A stretch of 64,000 nucleotides of DNA from a phage. Under the pieces are notes generated by a model. It was given only the letters and a program-made list of their open reading frames with translations. It was not told the origin of the DNA and made no database searches. Location of the stretch: NCBI GenBank assembly GCA_014686905.1, contig GCA_014686905.1_4093.1; one strand, given 5' to 3'. Both the position numbers and the translations under genes were made by a program. Within the stretch, counting starts at the first letter, position 1. The number at the start of each line of letters is the position of its first letter. This document shows positions 430 through 16,774 of the stretch, in pieces.

Positions 430-430
430 A

Positions 431-1643: not shown

Positions 1644-1644
1644 T

Positions 1645-1854
1645 ATGCTTACTGTACAGGATAAGATCGACATCTTAAAGGTTAATATGTATGTGATTGA
1701 TGCCGTACCTGGTAAAGTATTTGCATACGATGATTCTAATCGCAGTCCGTTTTATTGCAGTCATGTAGTTGGATACGTGCCGTTGGCGTATGTTATAGAA
1801 AGAGTGGTTGATGCAGCATACAAACATTTTTTAGAAAATAATACTTGCAATTAG
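1645..1854 (+). CDS. hypothetical protein (69 aa)
   Basis: internal ATG of track ORF 1567..1854, directly after stop of 1473..1643. Confidence 0.45.
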   Translation: MLTVQDKIDILKVNMYVIDAVPGKVFAYDDSNRSPFYCSHVVGYVPLAYVIERVVDAAYKHFLENNTCN

Positions 1855-1903
1855 TTTTCAGTACTGTATAATGATTTACATCGAGAGCGGGAATAGTTCC
1901 CGC
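1841..1903 (+). promoter_or_regulatory. sigma70-like early promoter plus 5' leader stem-loop
   Basis: TTGCAA 1845-1850, 16-bp spacer, TG-n-TATAAT 1867-1872; hairpin GCGGGAA/TTCCCGC 1887-1903. Confidence 0.6.
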
Positions 1904-1924
1904 CTCACTTTTAAGGAATATGAA

Positions 1925-2071
1925 ATGAAAGCATCAAAAAAGAGTAATACTAAGAAAGCATGTTCACCTTTCGCTGGGGTATTCCCTTTACGTTTCGTTG
2001 ATGAAGTGGTTTCCTACCCGCCTGGCCTTACTCCTGAGATGGTAGAAAGTTTGCGTAAATCTAAAAAATAG
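1925..2071 (+). CDS. hypothetical small protein (48 aa)
   Basis: RBS AAGGAA 1913-1918, ATG 1925. Confidence 0.5.
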   Translation: MKASKKSNTKKACSPFAGVFPLRFVDEVVSYPPGLTPEMVESLRKSKK

Positions 2072-2134
2072 TACTTGCAATTAGTTTTTAAACGCGTATA
2101 ATGTTTTACATGAAGGGGAGAAATGATTCTCCCC
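2066..2134 (+). promoter_or_regulatory. sigma70-like early promoter plus 5' leader stem-loop
   Basis: TTGCAA 2075-2080, TATAAT 2097-2102; hairpin GGGGAGAA/TTCTCCCC 2115-2134. Confidence 0.6.
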
Positions 2135-2152
2135 AATAACAGGAGAAACAAA

Positions 2153-2305
2153 ATGAAACAATATAATGCTCGGTTTGATGTTACTATCGGTAACGGCAAA
2201 GGTCAATTCTCTTTCAGTACTCGCAAAAGTTATACAGAAAACTTCCTGCGTAATTGTGCACTGACCGCCGCTCAAATTAAACATTATTTTCAGGCTAAAA
2301 AATGA
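2153..2305 (+). CDS. hypothetical small protein (50 aa)
   Basis: RBS AGGAGA, ATG 2153 (internal Met of track ORF 2123..2305). Confidence 0.5.
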   Translation: MKQYNARFDVTIGNGKGQFSFSTRKSYTENFLRNCALTAAQIKHYFQAKK

Positions 2306-2391
2306 AATCATTTGCTTACTATAGTTCTGCGGTGATCGGTGCATTGATCGCGGCGTTGTTAGTAACCTATCTATTCTTTATGGTGATTTAA
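2302..2391 (+). CDS. putative hydrophobic micro-protein (29 aa)
   Basis: ATGA overlap with upstream stop; MKSFAYYSSAVIGALIAALLVTYLFFMVI looks like one TM helix. Confidence 0.3.
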   Translation: MKSFAYYSSAVIGALIAALLVTYLFFMVI

Positions 2392-2535
2392 ATGAATCCA
2401 ACAGGCTTAAATTATAAAAGTTGTTCGGCGTTTACGAAAGCAAATAAAGCGAATGCACGTAAAGCGAAAGTACAGGAGTACATCAAGCAAGGCATGACGC
2501 GAAAGGCGGCGATTCTAAAAGCTAAAAATAAATGA
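2392..2535 (+). CDS. putative basic micro-protein (47 aa)
   Basis: ATG immediately after previous stop; Lys/Ala-rich. Confidence 0.3.
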   Translation: MNPTGLNYKSCSAFTKANKANARKAKVQEYIKQGMTRKAAILKAKNK

Positions 2536-2640
2536 AAAAAGTGGTTGACTCCGGTCAGCCATTTTGCTATTATATATTCATTGAGAGATAGCTCACTAGC
2601 CCACAGGGTGCATAAGTGTATCTATTATATAAGTATTGAG
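2536..2640 (+). repeat. REP-A intergenic element copy 1 (terminator-like hairpin plus conserved box)
   Basis: hairpin TGGTTGAC-TCCG-GTCAGCCA then T-run; conserved GCCCACAGGGTGCATAAGTGTATCTATT. Confidence 0.6.
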
Positions 2641-2654
2641 TACTGAAAACTATT

Positions 2655-2725
2655 TTTAAAAAGTACTTGCAAACTATCTCAATAAGCGTATAATGTTTTA
2701 CATCGAAAGGGGAAACGGTTTCCCC
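2655..2725 (+). promoter_or_regulatory. sigma70-like early promoter plus 5' leader stem-loop
   Basis: TTGCAA 2667-2672, TATAAT 2689-2694; hairpin GGGGAAAC/GTTTCCCC 2709-2725. Confidence 0.6.
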
Positions 2726-2745
2726 TGGTAATAAGGAAACAAATC

Positions 2746-3087
2746 ATGACTATCTCAATTGCTCAATCTAACTTTGAAAATGAAATCATCGCCCAGGCAC
2801 TGCGTTTAAATGATGGTCGGGCCGAAATTAATTACGGTTTCAATTCAGGCGGTTGCGAAAACTATCAGTACTTTGTAACGGCTGATGGCGGTGTCCTGGG
2901 TATCAATACAGTTATTGTAAACATCCAAAAAATTAATTTCAATGATCCAGACGATAGCCAGTTTTACATCACTGGCGTAGACGTGAACTATGAGGATGAC
3001 TCACTAACTGATGATCACACTGGCGAGCGGTTAGAAAGTGCATACGGTGAAGATGATTATCAGTCCGGTCCAGAAGATTTCGAATAA
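2746..3087 (+). CDS. hypothetical acidic protein (113 aa)
   Basis: RBS AAGGAAAC, ATG 2746. Confidence 0.65.
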   Translation: MTISIAQSNFENEIIAQALRLNDGRAEINYGFNSGGCENYQYFVTADGGVLGINTVIVNIQKINFNDPDDSQFYITGVDVNYEDDSLTDDHTGERLESAYGEDDYQSGPEDFE

Positions 3088-3090
3088 TAT

Positions 3091-3160
3091 AAAAAATAGT
3101 TTGACAATAGATTATAGTACTGTATAATAGTTTACATCAAGGGGAGAAAAACTTCTCCCC
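3091..3160 (+). promoter_or_regulatory. sigma70-like early promoter plus 5' leader stem-loop
   Basis: TTGACA 3101-3106, TG-n-TATAAT 3123-3128; hairpin GGGGAGAA/TTCTCCCC 3141-3160. Confidence 0.65.
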
Positions 3161-3182
3161 ACTAACAGAGAGAGAAAACAAA

Positions 3183-3395
3183 ATGGCTAATATCCGGTCG
3201 AAATTAAAAAATGCAAAACAAGTTTTATTTTCAGATCATGAATACTTTAATAAAGATATTACAGGAGTTACAAGTATCAAGGAAGTAAAAGAAAAAACCG
3301 GCGTTTTGTGTGATGTGCGATTAGTTGGAACATTTGGGAATAACGTGCTATATCGCTGCGGTGATTACAATTTTACACTGACTATCATTAACTAA
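3183..3395 (+). CDS. hypothetical protein (70 aa)
   Basis: RBS AGAGAGAGAAAA, ATG 3183. Confidence 0.6.
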   Translation: MANIRSKLKNAKQVLFSDHEYFNKDITGVTSIKEVKEKTGVLCDVRLVGTFGNNVLYRCGDYNFTLTIIN

Positions 3396-3399
3396 AAAT

Positions 3400-3443
3400 A
3401 TTATCACAGTACTATTGACATAGTTTGATAGTACTGACATAAT
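3400..3443 (+). promoter_or_regulatory. sigma70-like promoter
   Basis: TTGACA 3415-3420, 17-bp spacer, CATAAT 3438-3443; near-duplicate of promoter at 665-706. Confidence 0.55.
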
Positions 3444-3478
3444 AACTTTTATCAACTACACTACTAAGGAATTAAAAA

Positions 3479-3658
3479 ATGGCTATCATCGCAAAAACTG
3501 AAATCGTTGGTCTGGATTCTATCATCATGACGTTTGAAGATCAAAAAGGTATGTATGTAGTTTCCTATGGTGATTATGTTCGGGAGTATGAAACGGTAGA
3601 CGAAGCCTTTGAAAGTTATATTCGCCAGGTGAATAAAGCATACGATGACTACCGCTAA
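3479..3658 (+). CDS. hypothetical small protein (59 aa)
   Basis: RBS AAGGAA, ATG 3479; below track cut-off. Confidence 0.5.
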   Translation: MAIIAKTEIVGLDSIIMTFEDQKGMYVVSYGDYVREYETVDEAFESYIRQVNKAYDDYR

Positions 3659-3669
3659 AATATATTACC

Positions 3670-3713
3670 AGTACTATTAAATCTATTGACAACGTTTGAT
3701 AGTACTGTATAAT
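3670..3713 (+). promoter_or_regulatory. sigma70-like promoter
   Basis: TTGACA 3686-3691, TG-n-TATAAT 3708-3713. Confidence 0.55.
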
Positions 3714-3757
3714 AAGTTTTATAAACAGTAGTTAACTTAACCTAAGAGAGAAACAAA

Positions 3758-3901
3758 ATGATCGCACTGGATTCATTCATCGACGCAGTACTGGCAAAAA
3801 CTGGCGAGGATCTGACCGCAGAACAATACGCGATGATCGAGCAATGTCAGCAAAACGGTAAATCGGTGAAAGATACTGTTAAGATTATCCGCAAGATGTA
3901 A
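3758..3901 (+). CDS. hypothetical small protein (47 aa)
   Basis: RBS AGAGAGAAA, ATG 3758; followed by hairpin. Confidence 0.45.
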   Translation: MIALDSFIDAVLAKTGEDLTAEQYAMIEQCQQNGKSVKDTVKIIRKM

Positions 3902-3907
3902 TATTAT

Positions 3908-3935
3908 AGCCCACTGGTTAACGCTGGTGGGCTTT
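3908..3935 (+). terminator. putative intrinsic terminator
   Basis: hairpin AGCCCAC...GTGGGCT then TTTAAT; weak U-tract. Confidence 0.4.
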
Positions 3936-4006
3936 AATCATTTACCCTATACAATGCCAGTACTAAACCGTTTATCTCATTAGAATGCGTTACAGGACGT
4001 TTAACA

Positions 4007-4204
4007 ATGATTAGCATGAAATCAGTACAAAAACAAATAGAAACATTATCAAAAATTAAACGTAAACAATACTCCTTAGAATATACAATCAATGGTAACT
4101 ATCATCTAATGAAAGAAAATAATTTTATAGTCATTGATGAATCATTGCAAATCATTAGTATAGTACTGAAAGCATTAATCAATGACAGAAAAAAATTAAA
4201 ATAA
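4007..4204 (+). CDS. hypothetical Lys-rich protein (65 aa)
   Basis: track ORF; weak RBS. Confidence 0.4.
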   Translation: MISMKSVQKQIETLSKIKRKQYSLEYTINGNYHLMKENNFIVIDESLQIISIVLKALINDRKKLK

Positions 4205-4294
4205 TTGTTGACATACAATGCCAGTACTGGCATAATACTTACATCAAGACGAGAACGTCACCAACCCATAGGGTGCACAAATGTAACTATATAA

Positions 4295-4370
4295 TATCGA
4301 TCAATAAATGATCAAAAAAGTACTGGATCAATTTAGCATAAGGCGTATAATTCTGATCAATTCTTGATCA
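4295..4370 (+). promoter_or_regulatory. cluster of five GATC sites (TGATCAA-type repeats) in a long non-coding leader
   Basis: GATC at 4299, 4310, 4326, 4355, 4366 inside the ~330-bp non-coding stretch 4205-4532. Confidence 0.35.
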
Positions 4371-4532
4371 AAGGCAATAAACGTAGTTGAAATTATATAG
4401 AAAGTACAAAGGCGTTACCATTCGTGGTAATGCTGGGGAATATGTAGTATCATACGGTTTGAATAAAATCAGTACTAGTAGTATAATCGTAGCATTGCAG
4501 TACTATAGTATTTTTATAATGAGGTTAAAATA

Positions 4533-4790
4533 ATGGCTGTAGGATTTGCGAAGGACGGGGCCGAACAAGACGAGATTAACGCAGTGATTCAGGCCGCCGT
4601 AAACCACGCTAGAAAGCAAATTAACGCACAAATAGAATCACTGGTACATTGCCTCGACTGCGGCGATATAATCCCTGAGAAACGACGCCAGGCCGTTAAG
4701 GGATGTAAGTACTGCATAACTTGCCAGGAGGATCATGATAGTACTTTTAAACGTCCCCCGCGTAATTGTTGGCATAGATCTATGAGATAA
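4533..4790 (+). CDS. TraR/DksA-family C4 zinc-finger protein
   Basis: CLDC-x17-CITC (CxxC-x17-CxxC) spacing typical of TraR/DksA; RBS GAGG. Confidence 0.6.
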   Translation: MAVGFAKDGAEQDEINAVIQAAVNHARKQINAQIESLVHCLDCGDIIPEKRRQAVKGCKYCITCQEDHDSTFKRPPRNCWHRSMR

Positions 4791-4825
4791 AAAGTATTGA
4801 CAGTACTGAAAGATAGTGTATAATA
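4791..4825 (+). promoter_or_regulatory. sigma70-like promoter
   Basis: TTGACA 4798-4803, 16-bp spacer, TG-n-TATAAT 4820-4825. Confidence 0.6.
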
Positions 4826-4853
4826 TTTTATATCTTAACTGAGGATTGAAATC

Positions 4854-5210
4854 ATGGGAATACAACATATCACGCGTACTACTGACAATGGCGAGATCAC
4901 TGGCTATCAAGTACAGGGCAAAGTAGCACAATTGCAGTACTGGTTTGTTAAACGTGGAATCATTGCACCGGATCTTGATTATGACCGTGTAGCGTTTATT
5001 GATTCTCTTTATGTTGATCCTGATAGTCGGGGCAATGGTGAAGGTAACGAATTAATGAATGCCTTTATTGATGCCGCCGATGATTCAGATTGTATCATTT
5101 TAGAATGCGATACAGGAGAAGATAACGCCTTCAATCTTAAAGAATGGTACGAAGGTTTCGGATTCGAGGTACTGATCGATAGTGAATATCCTATCATGAT
5201 TTTATCATAG
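4854..5210 (+). CDS. putative GNAT-like acetyltransferase (118 aa)
   Basis: RGNGEGNELMNAFIDAA resembles GNAT motif A; RBS GAGGA. Confidence 0.45.
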   Translation: MGIQHITRTTDNGEITGYQVQGKVAQLQYWFVKRGIIAPDLDYDRVAFIDSLYVDPDSRGNGEGNELMNAFIDAADDSDCIILECDTGEDNAFNLKEWYEGFGFEVLIDSEYPIMILS

Positions 5211-5216
5211 TACTTG

Positions 5217-5280
5217 CATTTAGTTTTCAGTACTGTTATAGTACTTACATCAAGGGGAAACATCTTCCCCTACTAAGAGG
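5217..5280 (+). promoter_or_regulatory. early promoter plus 5' leader stem-loop
   Basis: TTGCAT 5224-5229, weak -10 TTATAG; hairpin AGGGGAA/TTCCCCT 5262-5280. Confidence 0.5.
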
Positions 5281-5288
5281 AAATAAAA

Positions 5289-5477
5289 ATGGAAAACTTA
5301 TCAAGTATTTTAGTACAAGATGATTTCGGTAATCCTGGAAGTGCTATCATTGTTCGGGGTAATAAAGCAACGTTTGTTATTGCTGGTGGACCTGTACAGC
5401 GTAGCATTAAAAATAATGCTGTTACCATTAATAATGTACGCTATCGCTTAGATAAAGAATTGATTCATAAACTTTAA
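5289..5477 (+). CDS. hypothetical protein (62 aa)
   Basis: RBS AAGAGGAAA, ATG 5289. Confidence 0.6.
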   Translation: MENLSSILVQDDFGNPGSAIIVRGNKATFVIAGGPVQRSIKNNAVTINNVRYRLDKELIHKL

Positions 5478-5544
5478 AAAGTATTTGACAATAGATTATA
5501 GTACTGTATAATAAGTTACATGAAGGGGTGAAATGATTCTCCCC
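5476..5544 (+). promoter_or_regulatory. sigma70-like early promoter plus 5' leader stem-loop
   Basis: TTGACA 5485-5490, TG-n-TATAAT 5507-5512; hairpin 5525-5544. Confidence 0.6.
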
Positions 5545-5561
5545 ACTAAGAGGAAAGAAAA

Positions 5562-5774
5562 ATGCAAGGTCAACTAATCGTTCGTAAATGGTCTGATACT
5601 AACGAAAAACCGTGGGATGTACAATACATCGGACCGGATGGGGTATCACGTTATCAGCCTGGCGTAACGCATAGTACTGAGCAATTCGCAAACGCTCACC
5701 GCGAACGCCTGTTAGAATCCATGAAACAGGGATTCTGTGAAAAATTCATTCAAGATCATTGGCTGAAAGATTAA
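5562..5774 (+). CDS. hypothetical protein (70 aa)
   Basis: RBS AAGAGGAAAG, ATG 5562. Confidence 0.6.
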   Translation: MQGQLIVRKWSDTNEKPWDVQYIGPDGVSRYQPGVTHSTEQFANAHRERLLESMKQGFCEKFIQDHWLKD

Positions 5775-5791
5775 TATAAGGAGTACAGCTT

Positions 5792-5884
5792 ATGCAAATG
5801 AATCCGATGATTATTGTTTTAGCTGTACTTATGATCATTCATGCAATAGTAGAAGTATTAACGCAATCAGGAGTAATAAAATGA
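5792..5884 (+). CDS. putative hydrophobic micro-protein (30 aa)
   Basis: RBS AAGGAG, ATG 5792; MQMNPMIIVLAVLMIIHAIVEVL looks like one TM helix. Confidence 0.3.
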   Translation: MQMNPMIIVLAVLMIIHAIVEVLTQSGVIK

Positions 5885-6054
5885 TTCAAGTAGAATTATC
5901 AGTACTGAAAGATCTGTTTTATCGGTTAGGTACTACTGGCGAGTATCCTAAAAGTGATACCGCAAAACTTTTTGTATCACTCGACTTATGGCAACGCGAA
6001 CAATTAGTAATGTCCTGGCGTAAAGGTAAAGCAGATAGCGAGGTGAAAGCATGA
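5881..6054 (+). CDS. hypothetical small protein (57 aa)
   Basis: ATGA overlap with previous stop; RBS AGGAG. Confidence 0.4.
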   Translation: MIQVELSVLKDLFYRLGTTGEYPKSDTAKLFVSLDLWQREQLVMSWRKGKADSEVKA

Positions 6055-6200
6055 AAGAATTCTTATTCGAAGTAGTGTTTCAAGGTGTCGGTAGTAACCA
6101 ACTGATTCGCTCAAGTGGTTACAATGTTAACCAGGCATGGAATAACATTAAACAAATGTACCCGAACGCTATCACCTATCGCAACCCGAAACAAGTTTAA
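6051..6200 (+). CDS. hypothetical small protein (49 aa)
   Basis: ATGA overlap; RBS GAGG. Confidence 0.4.
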   Translation: MKEFLFEVVFQGVGSNQLIRSSGYNVNQAWNNIKQMYPNAITYRNPKQV

Positions 6201-6210
6201 AAATAATTGA

Positions 6211-6300
6211 AAAAGGGATTGACTCCGGTCAGTCCCTTTGCTATTATATACGCATAGAAACAAATCAGCCCACAGGGTGCATAAATGTATCTATTGTTTG
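6211..6300 (+). repeat. REP-A intergenic element copy 2
   Basis: hairpin GGGATTGAC-TCCG-GTCAGTCCC 6215-6236 flanked by A-run and T-run; conserved GCCCACAGGGTGCATAAATGTATCTATT. Confidence 0.6.
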
Positions 6301-6330
6301 CTGGTGGCTAGTACTGAAAACTATTTTTAA

Positions 6331-6366
6331 AAAAGTACTTGCATTGTACTTAGAATCAAGTATAAT
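6331..6366 (+). promoter_or_regulatory. sigma70-like promoter upstream of ORF-free structured leader
   Basis: TTGCAT 6339-6344, 16-bp spacer, TATAAT 6361-6366; downstream hairpin ACGGGG...CCCCGT 6380-6405. Confidence 0.5.
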
Positions 6367-6447
6367 GTTTTACATCAGGACGGGGAACGAAACAAGTAAC
6401 CCCGTTAAGTAGTCCAGGAGTAAGACATAAGAAAACCTCCCCTGATA

Positions 6448-6482
6448 AAATAGTTTGACAATAGAAAGTAAACGAGTATAAT
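6448..6482 (+). promoter_or_regulatory. sigma70-like promoter
   Basis: TTGACA 6455-6460, TATAAT 6477-6482. Confidence 0.55.
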
Positions 6483-6515
6483 ACTTACATCAACCACTGA
6501 TAAGGAAACATTAAA

Positions 6516-6791
6516 ATGCGGATTCTACTGACAGCTAACGAAATCGAACAAGTACTGACTACTAACCTGGAAGACTGGAAACGTGAAGCAGATATCCAGG
6601 CGGTTCAACGGCTTAACGATGAGTTAACGCCGGATGACTTAAGCAAGATTGTAGATCCTCAATTCTACGAAGATATCCACGACACCGCGTTAAGCGTCGA
6701 GGATGTACTAGATAAGCACTACATTGATATTGATTTGCAGGTTTACGGTCGTAAAAACTTTATCACTATTCACGACATTTACAATAATTAA
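6516..6791 (+). CDS. hypothetical acidic protein (91 aa)
   Basis: RBS AAGGAAAC, ATG 6516. Confidence 0.65.
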   Translation: MRILLTANEIEQVLTTNLEDWKREADIQAVQRLNDELTPDDLSKIVDPQFYEDIHDTALSVEDVLDKHYIDIDLQVYGRKNFITIHDIYNN

Positions 6792-6855
6792 GTATTGACA
6801 AAGTATCTTAGTACTGTATAATAGTTTACATCGAGAGGGGGAATGGTTCCCCTCC
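6789..6855 (+). promoter_or_regulatory. sigma70-like early promoter plus 5' leader stem-loop
   Basis: TTGACA 6795-6800, TG-n-TATAAT 6817-6822; hairpin GAGGGGGAA/TTCCCCTC 6835-6855. Confidence 0.65.
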
Positions 6856-6877
6856 TAACAAAGAGAGAGAAATAAAA

Positions 6878-7060
6878 ATGGCTAAATGCACTATCTGTAA
6901 GAAAGAAATCGTATTAGTTCCAAGTGCCCGTGAACGTGCCGCTCGGTTCGGTGGCAAACCGTCAGACTATACAAAAATGTTTACTGTCCATGCAGCTTGC
7001 CAGGTAGCAAAACGTTCACAAGAAAGCGTAGAATTAATGCGTAAACTTTCCAAAAAATAA
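6878..7060 (+). CDS. hypothetical protein with CxxC pair (60 aa)
   Basis: RBS AGAGAGAGAAA, ATG 6878; CTICKK...HAAC. Confidence 0.55.
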   Translation: MAKCTICKKEIVLVPSARERAARFGGKPSDYTKMFTVHAACQVAKRSQESVELMRKLSKK

Positions 7061-7126
7061 GTATTGACAAAGTATCTTAGTACTGTATAATAGTTTACAT
7101 CAAGTGAGGGGAAACGGTTCCCCTCC
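7060..7126 (+). promoter_or_regulatory. sigma70-like early promoter plus 5' leader stem-loop
   Basis: TTGACA 7064-7069, TG-n-TATAAT 7086-7091; hairpin GAGGGGAAAC/GTTCCCCTC 7106-7126. Confidence 0.65.
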
Positions 7127-7148
7127 TAACAAAGAGAGAGAAATAAAA

Positions 7149-7472
7149 ATGGCTATGATCCTTGCCCAGAAAGTAGAACTGAAAATTGTAACCTCCTTTG
7201 ACATTAAAGTTAATCGGTGGACTGATTCACACGGCAATACTTACCACTCTTGCTACGTGTCTGCGTTAATTGGTGATCGTTGGGAAGACCTGGGACATGA
7301 AACCTTTACATACGGTTACGGCACACAAGGCGAATACACGGGCTTGGAGATCATTAAAGAAACCGTTATAGGTTTCAACCCGAAAGAAAAAGTTATTCAC
7401 CGCATCGAAAAAGAGATTAACAAAGAAATAACAGTTCGATACAACGATGTAAAACGTAAGAAAGACATGTAA
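7149..7472 (+). CDS. hypothetical protein; paralog of 748..1071
   Basis: ATG 7149 after RBS; shares RWTDSHGNTYHSC...FTYGYG block. Confidence 0.65.
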   Translation: MAMILAQKVELKIVTSFDIKVNRWTDSHGNTYHSCYVSALIGDRWEDLGHETFTYGYGTQGEYTGLEIIKETVIGFNPKEKVIHRIEKEINKEITVRYNDVKRKKDM

Positions 7473-7495
7473 TAGAATCCATTTAAAGTACTATT

Positions 7496-7534
7496 TGACA
7501 TTGCCCAGATAGTACTTTATAATAGACTCTAACT
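7496..7534 (+). promoter_or_regulatory. sigma70-like promoter
   Basis: TTGACA 7506-7511, 17-bp spacer, TATAAT 7529-7534. Confidence 0.55.
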
Positions 7535-7567
7535 TGTAGTACTAACTCAACTAATAGGATGTATACC

Positions 7568-7963
7568 ATGATTACTAAATTCTACGCTACCCGTGAAGCT
7601 GCCCGTATTGTTGCACGCGAGGAAGGAGCAGCATTTAAAGACATGGGCAAAGATGCACCGAAAGGTCAACGCTGGGCCGTACAGTTCAAAGAAATCTCTG
7701 ATATCGTGAATTCACCGGAGCCAGTACTAACAGCAGCAGAACTAAAACGAGCGGATTTACTGGCGGCAGTACTTAACGCACAAGATGAATTTATCGCTGA
7801 TTCTGATATCAAAGTACAGACAAACCATACCGCTTGGACTCACGCGGATCACCTGGCAAACCTTAAGCGTCCAAGTGAACTGGTACGCAACCAGAAAGAG
7901 ATCCGACACGACCGTAAGGGTAATCGTGTAACAGTATACAGTAAACGCCGCCAGGTTATCTAA
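7568..7963 (+). CDS. hypothetical protein (131 aa)
   Basis: RBS AGGA then ATG 7568 (alternative start 7559). Confidence 0.6.
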   Translation: MITKFYATREAARIVAREEGAAFKDMGKDAPKGQRWAVQFKEISDIVNSPEPVLTAAELKRADLLAAVLNAQDEFIADSDIKVQTNHTAWTHADHLANLKRPSELVRNQKEIRHDRKGNRVTVYSKRRQVI

Positions 7964-7985
7964 TAACTTGCAGTACTAACAACAC

Positions 7986-8010
7986 GGCGGGATCAGTTCC
8001 CGCCTTTTTT
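7986..8010 (+). terminator. rho-independent terminator
   Basis: hairpin GGCGGGA-TCAG-TTCCCGCC followed by TTTTTT. Confidence 0.75.
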
Positions 8011-8025
8011 ATAGGATAAACTAAA

Positions 8026-8280
8026 ATGATTAAGGTACAACTATCTAAAGATAATATCTTGCGGGTACACTATAAAGCACCACAGAGAATCATCACAAAG
8101 GCCGTACAGCTTGCTAATGAGTTTATTAATGGTAACCTATTACCAAGGAAGTTAAGCAACGGAAAACTGCGTGTAATCGATGTAGACACTAACAACAGAA
8201 TAGTAATAGAGAACACAGGAAAGATAAACCTTTATGAACATCAACAATATAATAAGAAAATAAAACTAATATCACGTTGA
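8026..8280 (+). CDS. hypothetical basic protein (84 aa)
   Basis: RBS AGGA, ATG 8026. Confidence 0.55.
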   Translation: MIKVQLSKDNILRVHYKAPQRIITKAVQLANEFINGNLLPRKLSNGKLRVIDVDTNNRIVIENTGKINLYEHQQYNKKIKLISR

Positions 8281-8333
8281 CAGTACTCAATTGTTTTAGT
8301 ATTATGTACACATACCAACACGGGAGAAACAAA

Positions 8334-8552
8334 ATGAAATTATCTAAAATCGAAAAGAAAACTATTGATGAAGCAGTTAAGCACGGTTATACCTTTCGTA
8401 ATGATTCACATTTTACCAATTTTCAACAAGGCCAAAGGACTATTAAAAAACTAATTGACAAAGGTTTATTAGTTAAAGTAGATAACGGTAACGGCATTGA
8501 GTATCAGCCAACCCAAGACGCATTATCTTTAAAGAAATATGCAATTATCTAA
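8334..8552 (+). CDS. hypothetical protein (72 aa)
   Basis: ATG 8334 after duplicated promoter/RBS block 8277-8333. Confidence 0.5.
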   Translation: MKLSKIEKKTIDEAVKHGYTFRNDSHFTNFQQGQRTIKKLIDKGLLVKVDNGNGIEYQPTQDALSLKKYAII

Positions 8553-8609
8553 TTGACAGTACTCAAATGTTTTAGTACTATATGTACATACCAACACGGG
8601 GGAAACAAA

Positions 8610-8852
8610 ATGATTACTTTAGAAAAACGTATCAAAGAAACTACATCGCTGGTGGAACTGTTAACAGTACTGAAATGTAAAACAACACCATTCAGCACGC
8701 CGGACTTTATTAATATGGTTGATGTTAATGGTCGCTATCGTATCACGGTCGAACAAGGAGCGGCGAAAGTATTCAGTACTAAAAACACTAAGGAAGTGAT
8801 CCACGCCGTTAATGTTAAAAAAGTAGTTGCAATTGATAGTAAAGTACTGTAA
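8610..8852 (+). CDS. hypothetical protein (80 aa)
   Basis: ATG 8610 after duplicated promoter/RBS block 8553-8609. Confidence 0.5.
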   Translation: MITLEKRIKETTSLVELLTVLKCKTTPFSTPDFINMVDVNGRYRITVEQGAAKVFSTKNTKEVIHAVNVKKVVAIDSKVL

Positions 8853-8883
8853 TATAGTTTCATTAACTCAAGGAGAACATGCA

Positions 8884-9468
8884 ATGCGTAATTATACTAA
8901 ATTCATCCGTACCCTGTCAGAAATGGAAACTAACAAAGAGATCCTTTCAGCTTGTCGGTTAGCTGGACTGGAGATCATCGGGGCGGGATCTTCCCGTATA
9001 GTTTTCGCTTTAAATGATCGGTTAGTGATTAAGGTCGCCAATTGTGATGCGGGTGTAGAACAAAATGAAACTGAATGTAAGGTATGGAATTTTTTAGACT
9101 ATGACCGCCCTCAATTGAAACAGTACTTTGCTAAAGTGCATATGCATTTAAGCGATCCTGATAATATGTTTATCGTTATGGATCGGTTGAGTACTGCAAG
9201 CAAAGGCAGTGTAAAGCACGTTAACGCGTGCAACGAATTAAAGTACAATATTAAACGTAATGCAATTGAACGCCAGCACCGCTTTGCTGATGCACTACAA
9301 CACGTTGATGATACACTGTCAACACTAACGATAAGAGATATCAGAAAACAGAATATCGGCCAGGATCGCAACGGCCTTATTAAAGTACTTGATTACGGTT
9401 TAACCCGCAATATCTGGAATCAGTACTATAAAAAGCGGGATGTAAAAGCCGTAACTATAACACGATAA
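8884..9468 (+). CDS. minimal protein-kinase-like protein (194 aa)
   Basis: Gly-rich loop GAGSSRIVF, VIKVA lysine, catalytic-loop-like RDIRKQN, DFG-like LDYG with kinase-like spacing; RBS AGGAGA. Confidence 0.55.
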   Translation: MRNYTKFIRTLSEMETNKEILSACRLAGLEIIGAGSSRIVFALNDRLVIKVANCDAGVEQNETECKVWNFLDYDRPQLKQYFAKVHMHLSDPDNMFIVMDRLSTASKGSVKHVNACNELKYNIKRNAIERQHRFADALQHVDDTLSTLTIRDIRKQNIGQDRNGLIKVLDYGLTRNIWNQYYKKRDVKAVTITR

Positions 9469-9477
9469 AAAAGATTA

Positions 9478-9575
9478 AAAAAGGGATTGACTTCGGTCAG
9501 TCCCTTTGCTATTATATATTCATTGAGAGATAGCTCACTGACCCACAGGGTGCATAAATGTATCTATTATATAAG
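9478..9575 (+). repeat. REP-A intergenic element copy 3
   Basis: hairpin GGGATTGAC-TTCG-GTCAGTCCC 9483-9504 then T-run; conserved box CCCACAGGGTGCATAAATGTATCTATT. Confidence 0.6.
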
Positions 9576-9600
9576 TATTCAGTACTGAAAACTATTTTTA

Positions 9601-9671
9601 AAAAAGTACTTGCATTGTACTTAGAATCAAGTATAATGTTTTATATCGAGAGGGGGAAATGGTTCTCCCTC
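9601..9671 (+). promoter_or_regulatory. sigma70-like early promoter plus 5' leader stem-loop
   Basis: TTGCAT 9610-9615, TATAAT 9632-9637; hairpin 9648-9671. Confidence 0.6.
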
Positions 9672-9691
9672 AAAGAATAAGGAATAAAATC

Positions 9692-9913
9692 ATGACTACA
9701 ATGACTTGCATTTACGCTTCCAATCTTCTGAATGATGCGGCCTTTAATGTTGATTCAGAATATCAATGTTATCGGGATGAAAATAAAAAAGTTTTTGTAG
9801 TTGATAATAATGGTTTCCATATTGAATTACAATCCGGTTTCACTGGTGTTGATGGTAAATCAGTATGGGGCGTACAGGATGATAACGGTACATATCATTT
9901 TAAACGTAATTAA
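9692..9913 (+). CDS. hypothetical protein (73 aa)
   Basis: RBS AAGGAATAAA, ATG 9692 (internal Met of track ORF 9659..9913). Confidence 0.55.
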   Translation: MTTMTCIYASNLLNDAAFNVDSEYQCYRDENKKVFVVDNNGFHIELQSGFTGVDGKSVWGVQDDNGTYHFKRN

Positions 9914-9975
9914 GTATTGACAAAGTATCTTAGTACTGTATAATAGTTTACATCAAGGGGAGAATAGTTCTCCCC
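9911..9975 (+). promoter_or_regulatory. sigma70-like early promoter plus 5' leader stem-loop
   Basis: TTGACA 9917-9922, TG-n-TATAAT 9939-9944; hairpin GGGGAGAA/TTCTCCCC 9957-9975. Confidence 0.65.
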
Positions 9976-9997
9976 GATACTAAAAGGAAACAAAATT

Positions 9998-10270
9998 ATG
10001 TCCAGCTACTCCGCTACTATGATCATTAAAGATATGAACGGTAATCCTACTTCTGCTGGTGGATCATTTGGAAACATTAATTTAGATGGTCGGTTATCCA
10101 TGCAATCAGCCATCGATGCAGCGAAAGAAGTTTTTAAGAATGAATGTACTGTTAGTAAGCTGGATTATATGGGATTCGCTATCGAGAAAACTAATCGTTT
10201 TGTGAACTACAAAAATCCACTGATGATTGATACTAACCTGAAAGCTAACGAAGTGGGGTACTTATTATGA
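9998..10270 (+). CDS. hypothetical protein (90 aa)
   Basis: RBS AAAGGAAAC, ATG 9998. Confidence 0.6.
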   Translation: MSSYSATMIIKDMNGNPTSAGGSFGNINLDGRLSMQSAIDAAKEVFKNECTVSKLDYMGFAIEKTNRFVNYKNPLMIDTNLKANEVGYLL

Positions 10271-10458
10271 CAGTAGAAGAAGTTAAAAAAGTACTGGCAG
10301 TACTACGCTATCATAATCATTGCAAGGTGAAGAATGATCCTGATTATGTTGATTCATCCCTGGAGGAAGACACATTAAACGCAATAAGCCATATGCAAAC
10401 ATTAGCAAAGCGTATGACCGAAAAGAATAGACCGGACTATATCGGAAATAAAATTTAA
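10267..10458 (+). CDS. hypothetical protein (63 aa)
   Basis: ATGA overlap with upstream stop. Confidence 0.5.
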   Translation: MTVEEVKKVLAVLRYHNHCKVKNDPDYVDSSLEEDTLNAISHMQTLAKRMTEKNRPDYIGNKI

Positions 10459-10526
10459 AAAGTACTTGCATTGTAGTTAGATTAACGTATAATGTTTTAC
10501 ATAGAGCGGGGGAATAGTTCTCCCGC
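10456..10526 (+). promoter_or_regulatory. sigma70-like early promoter plus 5' leader stem-loop
   Basis: TTGCAT 10466-10471, TATAAT 10488-10493; hairpin GCGGGGGAA/TTCTCCCGC 10506-10526. Confidence 0.6.
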
Positions 10527-10544
10527 CAGTCCAGGAGATACACC

Positions 10545-10808
10545 ATGAACACTATCGAAATCACTATCAATGCACACGTATACGACAACGTAGTACTGCA
10601 AACTACTATGACCGCTAATGATACCAGTACTTTGCGGAATACTGTTATTAGTGCCGTATGTGCCGCTATCGGTGATGTCGCCCTGGAAAATGCAGAACAC
10701 ATCAACGACGGTTTCACTATGTGCAAACGTGATAACGCAAAACATATCATCGTAGAAGGTTACGGCGGTGTAGAATATAATCTTTATATGAAAAAAGTAC
10801 TTGCATAA
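10545..10808 (+). CDS. hypothetical protein (87 aa)
   Basis: RBS AGGAGA, ATG 10545. Confidence 0.55.
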   Translation: MNTIEITINAHVYDNVVLQTTMTANDTSTLRNTVISAVCAAIGDVALENAEHINDGFTMCKRDNAKHIIVEGYGGVEYNLYMKKVLA

Positions 10809-10857
10809 TAACTAAAACAAAGTATAATGTTTTGCATAGGGGGAGATATCCTCCCCC
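10791..10857 (+). promoter_or_regulatory. sigma70-like early promoter plus 5' leader stem-loop
   Basis: TTGCAT 10801-10806, TATAAT 10823-10828; hairpin GGGGGAG/CTCCCCC 10838-10857. Confidence 0.6.
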
Positions 10858-10875
10858 ACTAAAAGGAGTAATAAA

Positions 10876-11100
10876 ATGGCTAACTTTGATGAACTGATGC
10901 GGGAAGTAGCTAACCTGGCAGAAGAGAAAAAATCATTCGATTCTATCTATAACACCGCTCACCGTGATTCAGTACTGGCATGTACTCAGGATCAAAAAGA
11001 TGAACTAATCGCCACATATCATGAAGCATGGAAGTACTACCGCCAATGGGAGAAAGAAGAAAGCGAGTCTACCATCAACGGCATCAATAATCTAATCTAA
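10876..11100 (+). CDS. hypothetical protein (74 aa)
   Basis: RBS AAAGGAG, ATG 10876. Confidence 0.6.
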   Translation: MANFDELMREVANLAEEKKSFDSIYNTAHRDSVLACTQDQKDELIATYHEAWKYYRQWEKEESESTINGINNLI

Positions 11101-11176
11101 AAGTTTTATTTCAGTACTATTGACATAGCTTGATAGTACTGATGTAATAACTTTACTAACTACAAGGGGAAACATA

Positions 11177-11434
11177 ATGGAACAGTTCACACAATATCGG
11201 GTAAATCCTCAAGCTATGGCCTACGTAGAAGACCATAAAACGTTACCAGTACTAACACCAATTAAAGGCCATATCTATCGTGCAATGTCATGGAATACGG
11301 CCCAGGATGGATATACTACCGCTGGCGTGGGTATGTATTGCGGGAATGGTGAATGGTTTGATCCAAATAATCCGGTAGCCATTGACAGTACTGAAAAAAT
11401 GAAATGGGCCGACTACATCGAAGATATTTCATAA
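11177..11434 (+). CDS. hypothetical protein (85 aa)
   Basis: promoter TTGACA...TGTAAT upstream; RBS AGGGGAAA. Confidence 0.6.
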   Translation: MEQFTQYRVNPQAMAYVEDHKTLPVLTPIKGHIYRAMSWNTAQDGYTTAGVGMYCGNGEWFDPNNPVAIDSTEKMKWADYIEDIS

Positions 11435-11501
11435 AACTATTTGACAGTACTAACCAGTAATGTATAATGTTTTACATAGAGCGGGGGAATAGTTCTCCCG
11501 C
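11435..11501 (+). promoter_or_regulatory. sigma70-like early promoter plus 5' leader stem-loop
   Basis: TTGACA 11441-11446, TG-n-TATAAT 11463-11468; hairpin 11480-11501. Confidence 0.6.
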
Positions 11502-11523
11502 CAATAGTTTGGAGTAAAACATT

Positions 11524-11724
11524 ATGTCTATCGCTATCGCCCTGGTTGAAGTACTGAAAGAAGCTAAAGCCAACCTTATCGATGTACAGATTAAGGAATT
11601 GCAAAATGGTTTAATCGGCTGTACTTGTACCGCTGGTGGAGCGGCAGACTATCGGGAATTCGAATCACTTGAATCGATGGTCCGTTATCTTACCATGATC
11701 GTAGAAGATTGGAGAATCATCTAA
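11524..11724 (+). CDS. hypothetical protein (66 aa)
   Basis: RBS GGAG, ATG 11524. Confidence 0.55.
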   Translation: MSIAIALVEVLKEAKANLIDVQIKELQNGLIGCTCTAGGAADYREFESLESMVRYLTMIVEDWRII

Positions 11725-11737
11725 CAAAAAAGAATAA

Positions 11738-11830
11738 AAAAAGGGATTGACTCCGGTCAGTCCCTTTGCTATTATATACGCATAGACAAAAACTAGCCCA
11801 CTGGGTGCAGGAGTGTATCTAAAATATATA
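11738..11830 (+). repeat. REP-A intergenic element copy 4
   Basis: hairpin GGGATTGAC-TCCG-GTCAGTCCC 11743-11764 then T-run; diverged box GCCCACTGGGTGCAGGAGTGTATCTA. Confidence 0.55.
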
Positions 11831-11969
11831 GTTAATAACGGTGAGTAACTATCTGCTGGTGGGGTGAAAACTATTAATAAAAAAGTATTGACAAAGTATA
11901 TCAGTACTGCAATAATGTATCTCGTAGGGCGGCAATGGTGCGACGGCCCACAAAGTTAGGAGATTCAAA

Positions 11970-12302
11970 ATGAGTACTTCAATCGCTATCGTTAAAGCTT
12001 TCATCCGTACCAATGTTTCATCTGTATTCATCGACGGTCTGGATCGGGAAGTAGAATACTCAATCATTATCGCACAGACTGCAAACGGTGCTCGGTATAT
12101 CCTTAATGATAGTGAAGCAAATCACTACTACTTCACTAAAGCCACTGGCTTTAAACGCATCGATGCTGATGTAGTATACGCTAAGATGAATAAGCTGGTA
12201 GACAAGATTAACGCGAAAGGTACTATCGATTTACAGTACTGGAACGAAACCTATCCAGAATATGGATCTCACCGTTACCTGAATCCAGGTATTAAAATGT
12301 AA
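11970..12302 (+). CDS. hypothetical protein (110 aa)
   Basis: promoter TTGACA...GCAATAAT upstream; RBS AGGAGA. Confidence 0.6.
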   Translation: MSTSIAIVKAFIRTNVSSVFIDGLDREVEYSIIIAQTANGARYILNDSEANHYYFTKATGFKRIDADVVYAKMNKLVDKINAKGTIDLQYWNETYPEYGSHRYLNPGIKM

Positions 12303-12370
12303 AAAGTACTTGCATAGTACTTAGAATCAAGTATAATGTTTTACATAGAGAGGGGGAAATGGTTCTCCCT
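12301..12370 (+). promoter_or_regulatory. sigma70-like early promoter plus 5' leader stem-loop
   Basis: TTGCAT 12309-12314, TATAAT 12331-12336; hairpin 12347-12370. Confidence 0.6.
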
Positions 12371-12391
12371 CCTAAATTAAGGAGTTTTATC

Positions 12392-12793
12392 ATGACCTTC
12401 TCAATCAATTCCTTCGCTGACGTTTTAGTACTGGCTCGGACTTTTGGTAAAGATGCACTGGAGTACGCTGTAAGTAATGGTACTATCCAACCGGAACAGT
12501 GCCGCATCATTGGAAACTGCAAACGTTGGGCGGTATCCAATACTATTGCACTGGAAAACTTCCACGATGGCAACAATGAATATTCTGTTGATGTAGTATT
12601 CGAAGCCGTTGATCTCGGCGGTATCTATAATACTAACCTGAATGATGTGCGTATCGTTCGCACGGGGTTCGGTGCTTATGATGTATCTATCCGTGAAGCT
12701 ATGGACACCGGATACATTAGCAAGGACTTACTTGCTCACATCATGCAGCTGTGTACGGAACGTAACGAAGCACGCACTATCTTAGGACTGTAA
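12392..12793 (+). CDS. hypothetical protein (133 aa)
   Basis: RBS AAGGAG, ATG 12392 (internal Met of track ORF 12359..12793). Confidence 0.6.
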   Translation: MTFSINSFADVLVLARTFGKDALEYAVSNGTIQPEQCRIIGNCKRWAVSNTIALENFHDGNNEYSVDVVFEAVDLGGIYNTNLNDVRIVRTGFGAYDVSIREAMDTGYISKDLLAHIMQLCTERNEARTILGL

Positions 12794-12817
12794 GCGTTAC
12801 ACATCACCAAACATCAT

Positions 12818-12840
12818 AGGCCGCCTTGTAGCGGCCTTAA
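12818..12840 (+). terminator. putative intrinsic terminator
   Basis: hairpin AGGCCGC-CTTGTA-GCGGCCT; weak T-tract. Confidence 0.4.
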
Positions 12841-12861
12841 CTATATCAGGAGTACATACAC

Positions 12862-13071
12862 ATGATCTATACAGTATACAGCGTTCTAGGCACTATTGCA
12901 GGCGTACATGATAACGTCGATAGTGCTATGCGTACAGTACTGCAACAGGTTCCACTAAAGCCTAAGACCATTAAGCAGATGACAGCACGACTAACCAGGG
13001 CGACCGATGGCGTGGAAGTATGGCAGGACTACGGGGATACACAGATAATCGTTAGCGTAACGAAGGATTAA
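12862..13071 (+). CDS. hypothetical protein (69 aa)
   Basis: RBS AGGAG, ATG 12862. Confidence 0.5.
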   Translation: MIYTVYSVLGTIAGVHDNVDSAMRTVLQQVPLKPKTIKQMTARLTRATDGVEVWQDYGDTQIIVSVTKD

Positions 13072-13097
13072 TGCGTAAAGGGATCTAGTACTGATTC

Positions 13098-13166
13098 AGA
13101 AAAAAGTCAAGGCGTTTTTAAAATTATGCGTTAAAAAAATGCATAGGTAATCCCTTGACTTTTTTG
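13098..13166. repeat. inverted repeat in non-coding junction
   Basis: AAAAAAGTCAAGG ... CCTTGACTTTTTT separated by ~40 nt; several AAAGGG boxes downstream. Confidence 0.5.
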
Positions 13167-13290
13167 AAATAAAAGGGATTGGACTATGGCAAAATGCGTA
13201 GGGGGCTAAAGGGCGGGTAACCTTAGCGACTTCGATAAAGGGGTATTACGAATAAAATGTTATTGACTTTTTATATGAATCGTATAAAAT

Positions 13291-13518
13291 ATGATCGATA
13301 ATAATTTTAAGGGAGTCCCTATGCGTATTTTAACTAAAGAACAGCACCACGAAAGACTTATCAATAACATGGCTATGATAATGTATAAGTCCCATGACCG
13401 TGGTATTGCCTATAAGCGTGAATTAATTATGGCACTATTCATTGGAACTAACTTTCAGGAAAGGTATGTCAACGATTGGATTTGGTATTTAATTGAAGAT
13501 ATAACGAGTAAACTATGA
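13291..13518 (+). CDS. LGTNYQ-family mini-protein
   Basis: motif FIGTNFQERY; RBS AAGGGAG. Confidence 0.6.
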   Translation: MIDNNFKGVPMRILTKEQHHERLINNMAMIMYKSHDRGIAYKRELIMALFIGTNFQERYVNDWIWYLIEDITSKL

Positions 13519-13715
13519 AAATGCGTATTTTAAATAAAGAAGAATATCAATCACTGTTACGTAAAAACTTCACAAAGATTTATAATACAGACACACACGT
13601 AGAACGAATGGAGTTATACCTTTTGATTACATTGGGAACAAACTATCAGGGTAGATGGGTGTGGCAATATATGGATACATTGAAAAATAAAATATTGTCC
13701 ACGAGGAAACAATGA
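13515..13715 (+). CDS. LGTNYQ-family mini-protein
   Basis: motif TLGTNYQGRW; ATGA coupling. Confidence 0.6.
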   Translation: MKMRILNKEEYQSLLRKNFTKIYNTDTHVERMELYLLITLGTNYQGRWVWQYMDTLKNKILSTRKQ

Positions 13716-13921
13716 AAACTATAACACGAACCCAATCATACGGTCTTATCTTGAAATACATGGACTTAATGGTGGATATCAGCAAAGACCTGCCTAAAAC
13801 TGAAATTGAAGTTGCAAGAGCAGAGATCCGCATGTTGGCTGTACTGAACACAAACCATCAGGAAGATTATGTTGAAGAATGGATTCGATTTTTAATTCAA
13901 GATATAAAGAGTAAATTATGA
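13712..13921 (+). CDS. LGTNYQ-family mini-protein
   Basis: motif VLNTNHQEDY; ATGA coupling. Confidence 0.6.
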   Translation: MKTITRTQSYGLILKYMDLMVDISKDLPKTEIEVARAEIRMLAVLNTNHQEDYVEEWIRFLIQDIKSKL

Positions 13922-14133
13922 TTATTATAGAAAACTCATATCAATATACTGAACGCATCGCTGCCAGACAACTTGAAATCCTCATAATATACGAAGAGAC
14001 TTCTGATTTAAACTTAGCCGAGGTATTGGAAAATGAAATACTTTTGGGTGCATTCTTGGGAACAGACTATCAGGAGTATTATGAGGAAAAGTATTTGTCA
14101 TCTCTTGAGAAATACATCAGGAGTAAATTATGA
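13918..14133 (+). CDS. LGTNYQ-family mini-protein
   Basis: motif FLGTDYQEYY. Confidence 0.6.
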   Translation: MIIIENSYQYTERIAARQLEILIIYEETSDLNLAEVLENEILLGAFLGTDYQEYYEEKYLSSLEKYIRSKL

Positions 14134-14342
14134 TTATATTAACACCTGAAGAATATAAGAAACGTTTTAATTCTGTCCAGACTGAAATATTACTTATATA
14201 CCTTTCAAATGCAGACCTTAACTTATCAAGGGCAATGGAGAAGGATTTACTTATGGGTGCATTTTTGGATACAGACTTTCAGGTGTATTATGTAGGGGAA
14301 TACTTAATTGCACTCCAGAATTACATTAGGAGTAAACTATGA
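14130..14342 (+). CDS. LGTNYQ-family mini-protein
   Basis: motif FLDTDFQVYY. Confidence 0.6.
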   Translation: MIILTPEEYKKRFNSVQTEILLIYLSNADLNLSRAMEKDLLMGAFLDTDFQVYYVGEYLIALQNYIRSKL

Positions 14343-16505: not shown

Positions 16506-16745
16506 ATGAAAATGATTAAATTATCTCAAGCAAAATATAAAGAACGCCTGGTGAAAATTGCACCTGGACTTAATGAAATCCATCACGGAGAAGTCATTAA
16601 ACACGGAAATAAGATGATTAAGAAACTTGAGTTAAAGGTGGGTGCATTCATAGGAACAAACTATCAGGAGTATTATGTAGATGAATACATAATCGCACTT
16701 AAGAGATACATTGGAAGAAAACTATATCTACAAACTAAAGAATAG
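16506..16745 (+). CDS. LGTNYQ-family mini-protein
   Basis: motif FIGTNYQEYY; ATG 16506 chosen over upstream track start. Confidence 0.55.
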   Translation: MKMIKLSQAKYKERLVKIAPGLNEIHHGEVIKHGNKMIKKLELKVGAFIGTNYQEYYVDEYIIALKRYIGRKLYLQTKE

Positions 16746-16774
16746 TATTGAAAATAAATGTGAGGTTGATGAAC

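Follow-up and report, generated by a model that had tools for sequence, protein, structure and literature searches.

The stretch of phage DNA analysed here, 64,000 nt in length and called the window below, is 96–98% identical to Asteriusvirus jumbo coliphages, among them PBECO4, 121Q, G17, and Sharanji. Its plus strand carries an open reading frame at positions 8884–9468, which starts with ATG at 8884, ends with TAA at 9466–9468, and comprises 194 codons and the stop. The product was assigned to PHROG 4301, a family annotated as of "unknown function", with an E-value of 4e-42 and 145 bits over residues 3–188. A longer frame starting from the TTG at 8827 is unlikely, because all orthologues have a uniform length of 194 aa. 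The minus-strand ORFs located within the gene (8892–9041 and 9111–9371) are purely mechanical and were rejected for want of any support, and both Rfam and tRNA scans around the gene were empty. The features of the locus are given below, where residues are numbered on the 194-aa protein and domain counts refer to the family set defined further on.

8553–8581, plus strand: sigma-70-like promoter TTGACA-17-TACTAT, the closest strong one on the upstream side and the probable start of a two-gene transcript
8610–8852, plus strand: 80-aa ORF directly upstream of the kinase gene, from the ORF list, with no Pfam match, probably co-transcribed
8870–8875, plus strand: Shine–Dalgarno sequence AAGGAG, read from the sequence, with the ATG 8 nt downstream
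8884–9468, plus strand: coding sequence of the compact, protein-kinase-like product of 194 aa (PHROG 4301), assigned from the ORF, profiles, and structural model
8977–9006, plus strand: Gly-rich loop IGAGSSRIVF (residues 32–41), in which G33, G35, S36, S37, and R38 are kept family-wide, aligned to the G-loop of MKK7
9031–9033, plus strand: K50, the beta-3 lysine in LVIKVA (VIKV), present in 182/182 domains, on the predicted strand 47–52
9073–9075, plus strand: E64, the alpha-C glutamate of the motif G57-x2-Q60-N61-x2-E64, present in 180/182 domains, on the predicted helix 55–73
9337–9354, plus strand: catalytic loop D152-I-R-K-Q-N157, aligned to HRDxKxxN of MKK4/7 and FGFR
9391–9399, plus strand: D170-Y-G172 within LDYG, the DFG equivalent, with Asp in 180/182 and Gly in 178/182 domains, aligned to the kinase DFG
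9406–9465, plus strand: short C-terminal helix (residues 175–182) and tail, from predicted secondary structure, with Y182 in 136/182 domains
9480–9507, plus strand: terminator-like hairpin 12 nt past the stop (−18.5 kcal/mol, z = −4.4), at the same place as a terminator annotated in G17

The 194-aa protein is 100% identical to XMR00950.1 of phage Turkey3 and 92–99.5% identical to its counterparts in 34 further records of E. coli and Salmonella phages. The identity is 36–39% to proteins of Klebsiella (RaK2 and Muenster), Salmonella (Munch), and Erwinia jumbo phages, and a related-locus search using the alignment of close relatives gave phage 121Q only. The kinase prediction is not new, since it is already present in public annotations and in one paper. 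The identical Turkey3 protein is annotated as "serine/threonine-protein kinase PknA", while the names "protein kinase domain-containing protein" (ph0011, and PBECO4 in UniProt) and "putative protein kinase" (Munch, Muenster, fENko-Kae01, and SE_PL) are given to others. A CDS of fEgEco12 that lies under a 3.5-kb match, and may be the orthologue, is called "serine/threonine-protein kinase PRP4". The paper on Sharanji lists the orthologue WNN14351.1 as a kinase of unknown function (PMC11895373). Experimental work on the PHROG 4301-type compact kinase family was not found in the literature, and the gene is an uncharacterised example of the phage-encoded compact kinases. Such kinases were called uncommon in a preliminary description of this DNA, which does not agree with the size of the family. 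A HMMER scan of 1.84 billion representative proteins detected 2,086 relatives of this family alone at E ≤ 1e-3, each a cluster representative, with 252 of them at E ≤ 1e-10, and many similar small phage proteins are contained in BFVD. The compact family is also large in metagenomes.

Residue conservation was counted in 182 near-full-length domains, which were obtained from the best 160 representatives of the 2,086 relatives clustered at 50% identity. The preliminary description placed the kinase motifs in canonical order and spacing, and all of the motifs that it listed were located where it had put them, with E64 as an addition. Besides its glycines, the Gly-rich loop retained R38 in 178/182 domains, and S36 and S37 are likewise fixed in a family-specific manner. 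Family-specific conservation was also observed for Q60 (178/182) and N61 (176/182), both at the start of helix C, and for G159 (178/182). In the segment RDIRKQN (residues 151–157, positions 9334–9354), D152 (codon 9337–9339) is Asp in 177/182 domains and Glu in four more, while position 157 (codon 9352–9354) is Asn in this phage group and Asn, His, Ser, or Gln across the 182 domains. This segment was originally described as resembling a catalytic loop. The Arg that precedes D152 is not conserved, and neither are the remaining non-catalytic residues; positions 151, 154, and 155 are variable across the same 182 domains. The +2 position of HRDxK is occupied by Arg in I-R-D-I-R-K-Q-N, with a Lys at +3, and close orthologues have I-D-I-S-K-T-N instead. 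Two alleles of the loop, RDIRKQN and IDISKTN, hence exist among orthologues of more than 88% identity; they differ at the non-catalytic positions 151, 154, and 156, and the latter replaces the former even in orthologues of 93% identity. Because of such variation, only the D and N of RDIRKQN carry weight. The DFG-like LDYG was described as lying about 20 residues later, and the spacing between D152 and D170 was indeed 18 residues; D166 and D184 of PKA are also 18 residues apart. The middle residue of DYG is Tyr or Phe in 155/182 domains. At the level of sequence, the near-invariant pattern of Lys, Glu, Asp, Asp, and Gly argues for a working phosphotransferase over a pseudokinase.

The top Pfam match of the 194-aa protein was Pkinase (PF00069; E = 1.3e-3), whose score of 18.6 bits does not reach the gathering score of 31.7. 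Pkinase was matched at E ≤ 0.1 by 7 of 43 relatives, for which the best E-value was 5.7e-6. When the single protein was compared with the PDB sequences using phmmer, 57 protein kinases were present among the 60 matches listed, and the catalytic loop and DFG were aligned motif on motif. A profile of 11 relatives aligned positions 29–181 to residues 21–170 of MKK7, from the G-loop to beyond DFG (E = 3e-4), and a profile of 43 relatives matched FGFR1/2 and BTK in register with E = 1e-4 to 6e-4. MKK4 was also matched by the family profiles, within the range of 1e-4 to 3e-4 that includes FGFR1 and MKK7. For the Muenster orthologue, the GenBank record gives an HHpred match to 6J5T_M at 99.9% probability. 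The preliminary description also named the RIO and Kdo kinases next to protein kinases as families to be searched; protein kinase profiles matched, whereas no match to RIO or Kdo kinases was obtained. For the 194-aa protein, none of the RIO Pfam families gave a profile match, and no match to the APH Pfam family was listed at E ≤ 10. YrbL-PhoP_reg (PF10707), a kinase-like family of approximately 200 aa, was not listed either for the 194-aa protein or among the families of the 43 relatives, and a tandem-domain relative (P0031) scored 29.4 bits against its cut-off of 31.5. PADLOC detected nothing beyond a weak generic kinase similarity to PD-T4-6.

A structural model of kinase-type fold was obtained with AlphaFold from an alignment of 43 sequences, with a pLDDT of 93.4 and a pTM of 0.89. 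Its N-terminal part consists of two helices, the strands 30–34, 38–42, and 47–52, the long helix 55–73, and the strand 96–100, which follow the order found in kinases. The C-terminal part is composed of the helices 108–121 and 129–145, the catalytic loop, the strands 158–160 and 166–168, DYG, and the short helix 175–182. Read in kinase terms, the predicted N-lobe is normal and is followed by a hinge and by helices D and E before the catalytic loop. A Foldseek search of the PDB with this model gave OSR1, PfPK5, MEK1, PknA/B, Lpg2603, and APH(2'') at E of approximately 1e-4 and TM of approximately 0.45, and hundreds of kinase structures were matched in the fold searches. These values indicate a fold that is kinase-like, yet not close to any solved structure. 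The model is bilobal, as are the members of the protein-kinase-like superfamily, and the catalytic residues are kept at 97–100% in the 182 domains. The in-register profiles, the confident kinase-type model, and the near-invariant Lys, Glu, Asp, and Asp bear out the earlier description of the protein as kinase-like. We regard the protein-kinase-like fold as highly probable, and consider it likely that the protein is an active phosphotransferase.

The chain stops 22 residues after DYG, and this portion contains only one short helix and a tail. The activation segment, the APE motif, and helices F–I are thus absent from the predicted protein, together with the Asp of helix F and the Arg of helices G–I. 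The unit of approximately 190 aa constitutes the entire protein in most relatives, and the domains end at the same point family-wide. In many other relatives, complete domains are repeated head to tail with 2–4 per polypeptide, such as three copies in P0021 and four in P0022. The tandem repetition and the whole-protein occurrence therefore indicate an autonomous domain and not a truncated annotation. The word "minimal" applied to this protein in the preliminary description is well chosen, since no more than about 22 residues come after DYG and the domain recurs as a self-contained unit of about 190 aa in the tandem arrays. The tandem-array relatives include P0021, P0022, P0028, P0030, and P0032, and their metagenomic contigs reach about 180–310 kb. 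Pfam detected no fused domain on the long relatives except for sub-threshold YrbL and AceK matches in one protein. Another relative, P0077, shows a nucleotidyltransferase-like GS...DxD motif in its N-terminal segment as judged by eye.

The canonical Ser/Thr/Tyr kinases (PF00069, PF07714, and PknB/PknA) share with the 194-aa protein the G-loop, Lys, Glu, Asp/Asn, and Asp-x-Gly in the same order and spacing. In contrast to them, it lacks the activation segment, APE, the helix F Asp, helices G–I, and the conserved Lys of HRDxK, and its Pfam match is sub-threshold. With the length of PKA as a measure, it is approximately 90–110 residues shorter than the canonical domain. RIO1/RIO2 and the archaeal tRNA kinase ArkI keep more of the C-lobe helices, and they are cellular enzymes of ribosome biogenesis or tRNA, not phage proteins. 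The structural likeness to APH is limited to the shared core, as no residues are left for the APH C-terminal subdomain. HopBF1 was set alongside by description as a very small protein of kinase fold. Its structure, presumably PDB 6PWD, was not among the top matches listed in the fold searches. Unlike the present protein, HopBF1 is secreted as an effector by pathogens of plants and animals and acts on the HSP90 of eukaryotes. It is nevertheless an active minimal kinase of little sequence similarity to the canonical kinases, and it serves a parasite in attacking its host (PMC9950578).

The T7 kinase gp0.7 (PF27024) resembles the 194-aa protein in general design: it is phage-encoded and early, as is inferred here, and its compact domain combines N-terminal helices with a G-loop, a lysine strand of the form VIKV, and a D-x4-N loop. 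In the T7 sequence, likewise, the chain either stops or passes into another domain shortly after the DFG-equivalent Asp, without the C-lobe helices F–I, and phosphorylation of host proteins is the role expected for both. In BFVD, the entry "Protein kinase [Pantoea phage vB_PagP-SK1]", which we take to be a T7-type kinase, gave a TM of 0.55 to the model versus 0.45 or less for the PDB kinases. The T7 kinase, with a kinase domain spanning residues 1–242, disarms defences by phosphorylation (PMC13645617). It differs in possessing a DPV motif and a C-terminal shutoff/DNA-binding domain (PMC13645617), whereas the 194-aa protein has DYG and ends at residue 194. Membership in the T7 kinase family was rejected, as the hhalign probability was 2% with T7K alone and 0.3% with a profile of 10 T7K sequences, the alignment being an insignificant one of the N-lobe. 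Similarly, the 194-aa protein showed no match to phrog_2828, the T7 kinase family, at E ≤ 1, while T7K itself gave 1.6e-169. The T7K homologues reported for jumbophages had been detected by the HMM of PHROG 2828 using a cut-off of E ≤ 1e-10, and they have a DP(V)-type motif (PMC13645617). The 194-aa kinase falls below this cut-off, and those homologues are therefore a different gene. Indeed, the same phage group has a separate T7K-like gene (WNN14432.1 in Sharanji), which is not present in the 64-kb window. Weak tblastn matches of T7K in the window at 56651–56791 and 25081–25317 are spurious, because the ORFs located there are not kinase-like.

The orthologous gene of vB_Ec-M-J (EcMJ_042, 16690–17274) is located within an annotated direct terminal repeat (1–21525), and that of Muenster is within a terminal repeat predicted by PhageTerm (1–20030). 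A terminal repeat of 20.7 kb was reported for Sharanji (PMC11895373). The kinase gene occurs twice in those records that include both repeats. Between positions 1 and 16000 of the window, 29 near-consensus sigma-70 promoters were detected on the plus strand, to which the gene belongs, versus 5 on the minus strand, and ten of the promoters in this region are perfect (TTGACA-16/17-TATAAT). The G+C content is 35–41% in the first ~13 kb of the window versus 30–32% beyond. In addition to the promoter at 8553–8581, a weaker one (TTGCAA-17-TAATAT) was read from the sequence at 8827–8855, which is below the scan threshold. No terminator-like site was seen between the 8553 promoter and the kinase gene. 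The 80-aa ORF preceding the gene is conserved in Asteriusvirus, and a weak relative of it adjoins the Munch kinase gene upstream (37% over 43 aa, E = 9e-6). Transcript data for the kinase gene were not found in the literature or databases. Since the gene resides in a direct terminal repeat amid near-consensus sigma-70 promoters of the same strand, we reasonably infer from the sequence that it is expressed early by the host RNA polymerase, as part of a two-gene transcript.

Several minor observations were made on the organisation of this region. Almost every small gene in the terminal-repeat part has its own promoter. The stem of the hairpin at 9480–9507 holds the −35 box of the next promoter (9487–9515), and this arrangement belongs to a 36-nt element, AAAGGGATTGACTYCGGTCAGTCCCTTTGCTATTAT, which occurs three times on the plus strand (6212–6247, 9480–9515, and 11740–11775). 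The element AAAGGGATTGACTYCGGTCAGTCCCTTTGCTATTAT consists of a 12-bp GC-containing hairpin (−18.5 kcal/mol, z = −4.4) and a sigma-70-like promoter whose −35 box TTGACT is within the stem. It looks like a composite terminator–promoter placed between early genes. The intergenic regions 8277–8333 and 8553–8609 are near-identical, each containing a promoter and a ribosome-binding site; as a result, the first 20 residues in the translations of the TTG-start ORFs are nearly identical (MTVLNCFSIMYTYQHGRNKM and MTVLKCFSTICTYQHGGNKM). The content of Ser+Thr+Tyr in the predicted proteins was 16.0% for ORFs of the terminal-repeat part, in 1–14160, and 18.6% for 14160–64000 (Mann–Whitney p = 0.0017). This depletion resembles the one that the T7K paper describes in T7-like phages carrying a promiscuous kinase, where early proteins are affected, but it was dropped as evidence because it is confounded by the higher G+C content and by crude gene calling.

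Taken as a whole, the analysis inclines us, by a modest preference, to view the gene product as an early compact protein kinase of Ser/Thr type that would phosphorylate host, and perhaps phage, proteins for takeover or anti-defence. Mg-ATP would bind in the cleft between the two lobes, where the K50–E64 pair would position the phosphates, D170 and N157 would bind the metal, and D152 would serve as the base. The residues of GSSR and QN, together with the short helix after DYG, probably form a shallow substrate site. The location in the terminal repeat would supply two copies of the gene per packaged genome, and the protein is probably made by the host RNA polymerase soon after DNA entry, because host-type promoters follow one another where the gene is located. 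We favour host proteins as substrates by analogy with T7K and HopBF1. More tentatively, the family may represent a distinct ultra-compact kinase module widespread in large phages (more than 2,000 clusters at 50% identity), with a core of approximately 160 residues and two N-terminal helices but no helices F–I, and often with 2–4 copies per polypeptide. It might then operate alongside the T7K-like enzyme as a further early kinase, having its own set of host or defence targets or, instead, a non-protein substrate set by the GSSR and QN motifs. Phage kinases were recently shown to be broad anti-defence weapons by the example of T7 kinase (PMC13645617), and this jumbo group possesses both a T7K-like kinase and an unrelated compact one. 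If the latter is active, it would be a second and independently evolved phage tool for phosphorylation, whose targets could reveal new host vulnerabilities or defence systems, and it would indicate how far the kinase fold can be reduced without loss of catalysis. Should it prove to be just one more promiscuous early kinase, it would be a routine addition to a known class.

The main rival to a protein kinase is an active phosphotransferase of kinase-like fold whose substrate is not a protein, such as a small molecule, a nucleotide or signalling molecule, a lipid, a sugar, or RNA. It takes this place because the parts that bind peptides are absent and because APH scores equally in the fold searches, though we judge it rather unlikely. 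The elements that hold the peptide in canonical kinases (activation segment, P+1 loop, and helices F–G) are missing, and APH(2'') ranks alongside protein kinases in both fold searches. The invariants near the active site (S36, S37, R38, Q60, N61, and G159) have no kinase-wide meaning, no Lys exists at +2 of the catalytic loop, and the metal-binding Asn is replaced by His, Ser, or Gln within the family. On the other hand, the sequence profiles match protein kinases and not the APH, choline-kinase, or Kdo-kinase families, and the helical substrate subdomain at the C-terminus of APH-type enzymes is absent here as well. Other very compact kinases, namely T7 kinase and HopBF1, act on proteins; RIO kinases are also compact and phosphorylate proteins. 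A loss of kinase activity, leaving a nucleotide-binding scaffold or decoy, or a change of chemistry to AMPylation or glutamylation as in SelO and SidJ, would fit with the absence of helix F, around which the core of canonical kinases is organised, and with the variation of the metal-binding Asn. Pseudokinases typically lack one or more of the catalytic residues. In the 182 diverged domains, however, the Lys, Glu, both Asp, and the Gly of DYG are almost totally kept, which is the hallmark of canonical phosphotransfer. This conservation pattern makes a pseudokinase or other chemistry quite unlikely, although precedents for the latter exist in the kinase fold, SidJ for example (PMC9950578). That the motifs are a chance resemblance in a protein that is not kinase-like can be regarded as effectively refuted. 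Such an idea could draw on the sub-threshold Pfam match of the single sequence and on a poor AlphaFold model (pLDDT 48) built from 11 close sequences, but it conflicts with the in-register profile matches, the confident model of kinase topology from 43 sequences, and the hundreds of structural matches to kinases, as well as with the fact that it is specifically the motif residues that are near-invariant.

A further reading does not concern the catalytic chemistry but the neighbourhood of the gene. An 84-aa protein encoded at 8026–8280 on the plus strand has a ParE-like toxin fold (PF24732; 42.6 bits, gathering score 24.4), and it could form one early module with the kinase, which would control or complement a toxin-like factor for host shutoff. 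Five lineages have a PF24732 gene on the upstream side of the kinase gene, 0–1.4 kb away and always within 1.5 kb; the kinases of the other lineages are only 37–52% identical to the present one, and the intervening genes differ between lineages. All of these phages constitute one related jumbo group, however, and the arrangement could merely reflect common descent. The ParE-like gene is absent from the 5.5 kb around the kinase genes of Munch and Kaldavass, the apparent fusion suggested by the JGI name "RelE" on P0192 is not confirmed by Pfam, and the five lineages are a small part of the 2,086 family members. We therefore consider such a module improbable, and the compact kinase directed at host proteins remains our preferred view. 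The five lineages are represented by the window, L009 (where 4 nt separate the two genes), Muenster, L012, and L013/L014. The ParE-like gene is found at 5745–5996 in L009, 1563–1811 in L007, 3351–3599 in L012, and 2003–2251 in L013. Its product is better conserved than the kinase, with identities of 79% and 65% versus 52% and 37%. In the window, L009, and Muenster, the gene before the ParE-like one is a homologue of the 134-aa ORF at 7559–7963.
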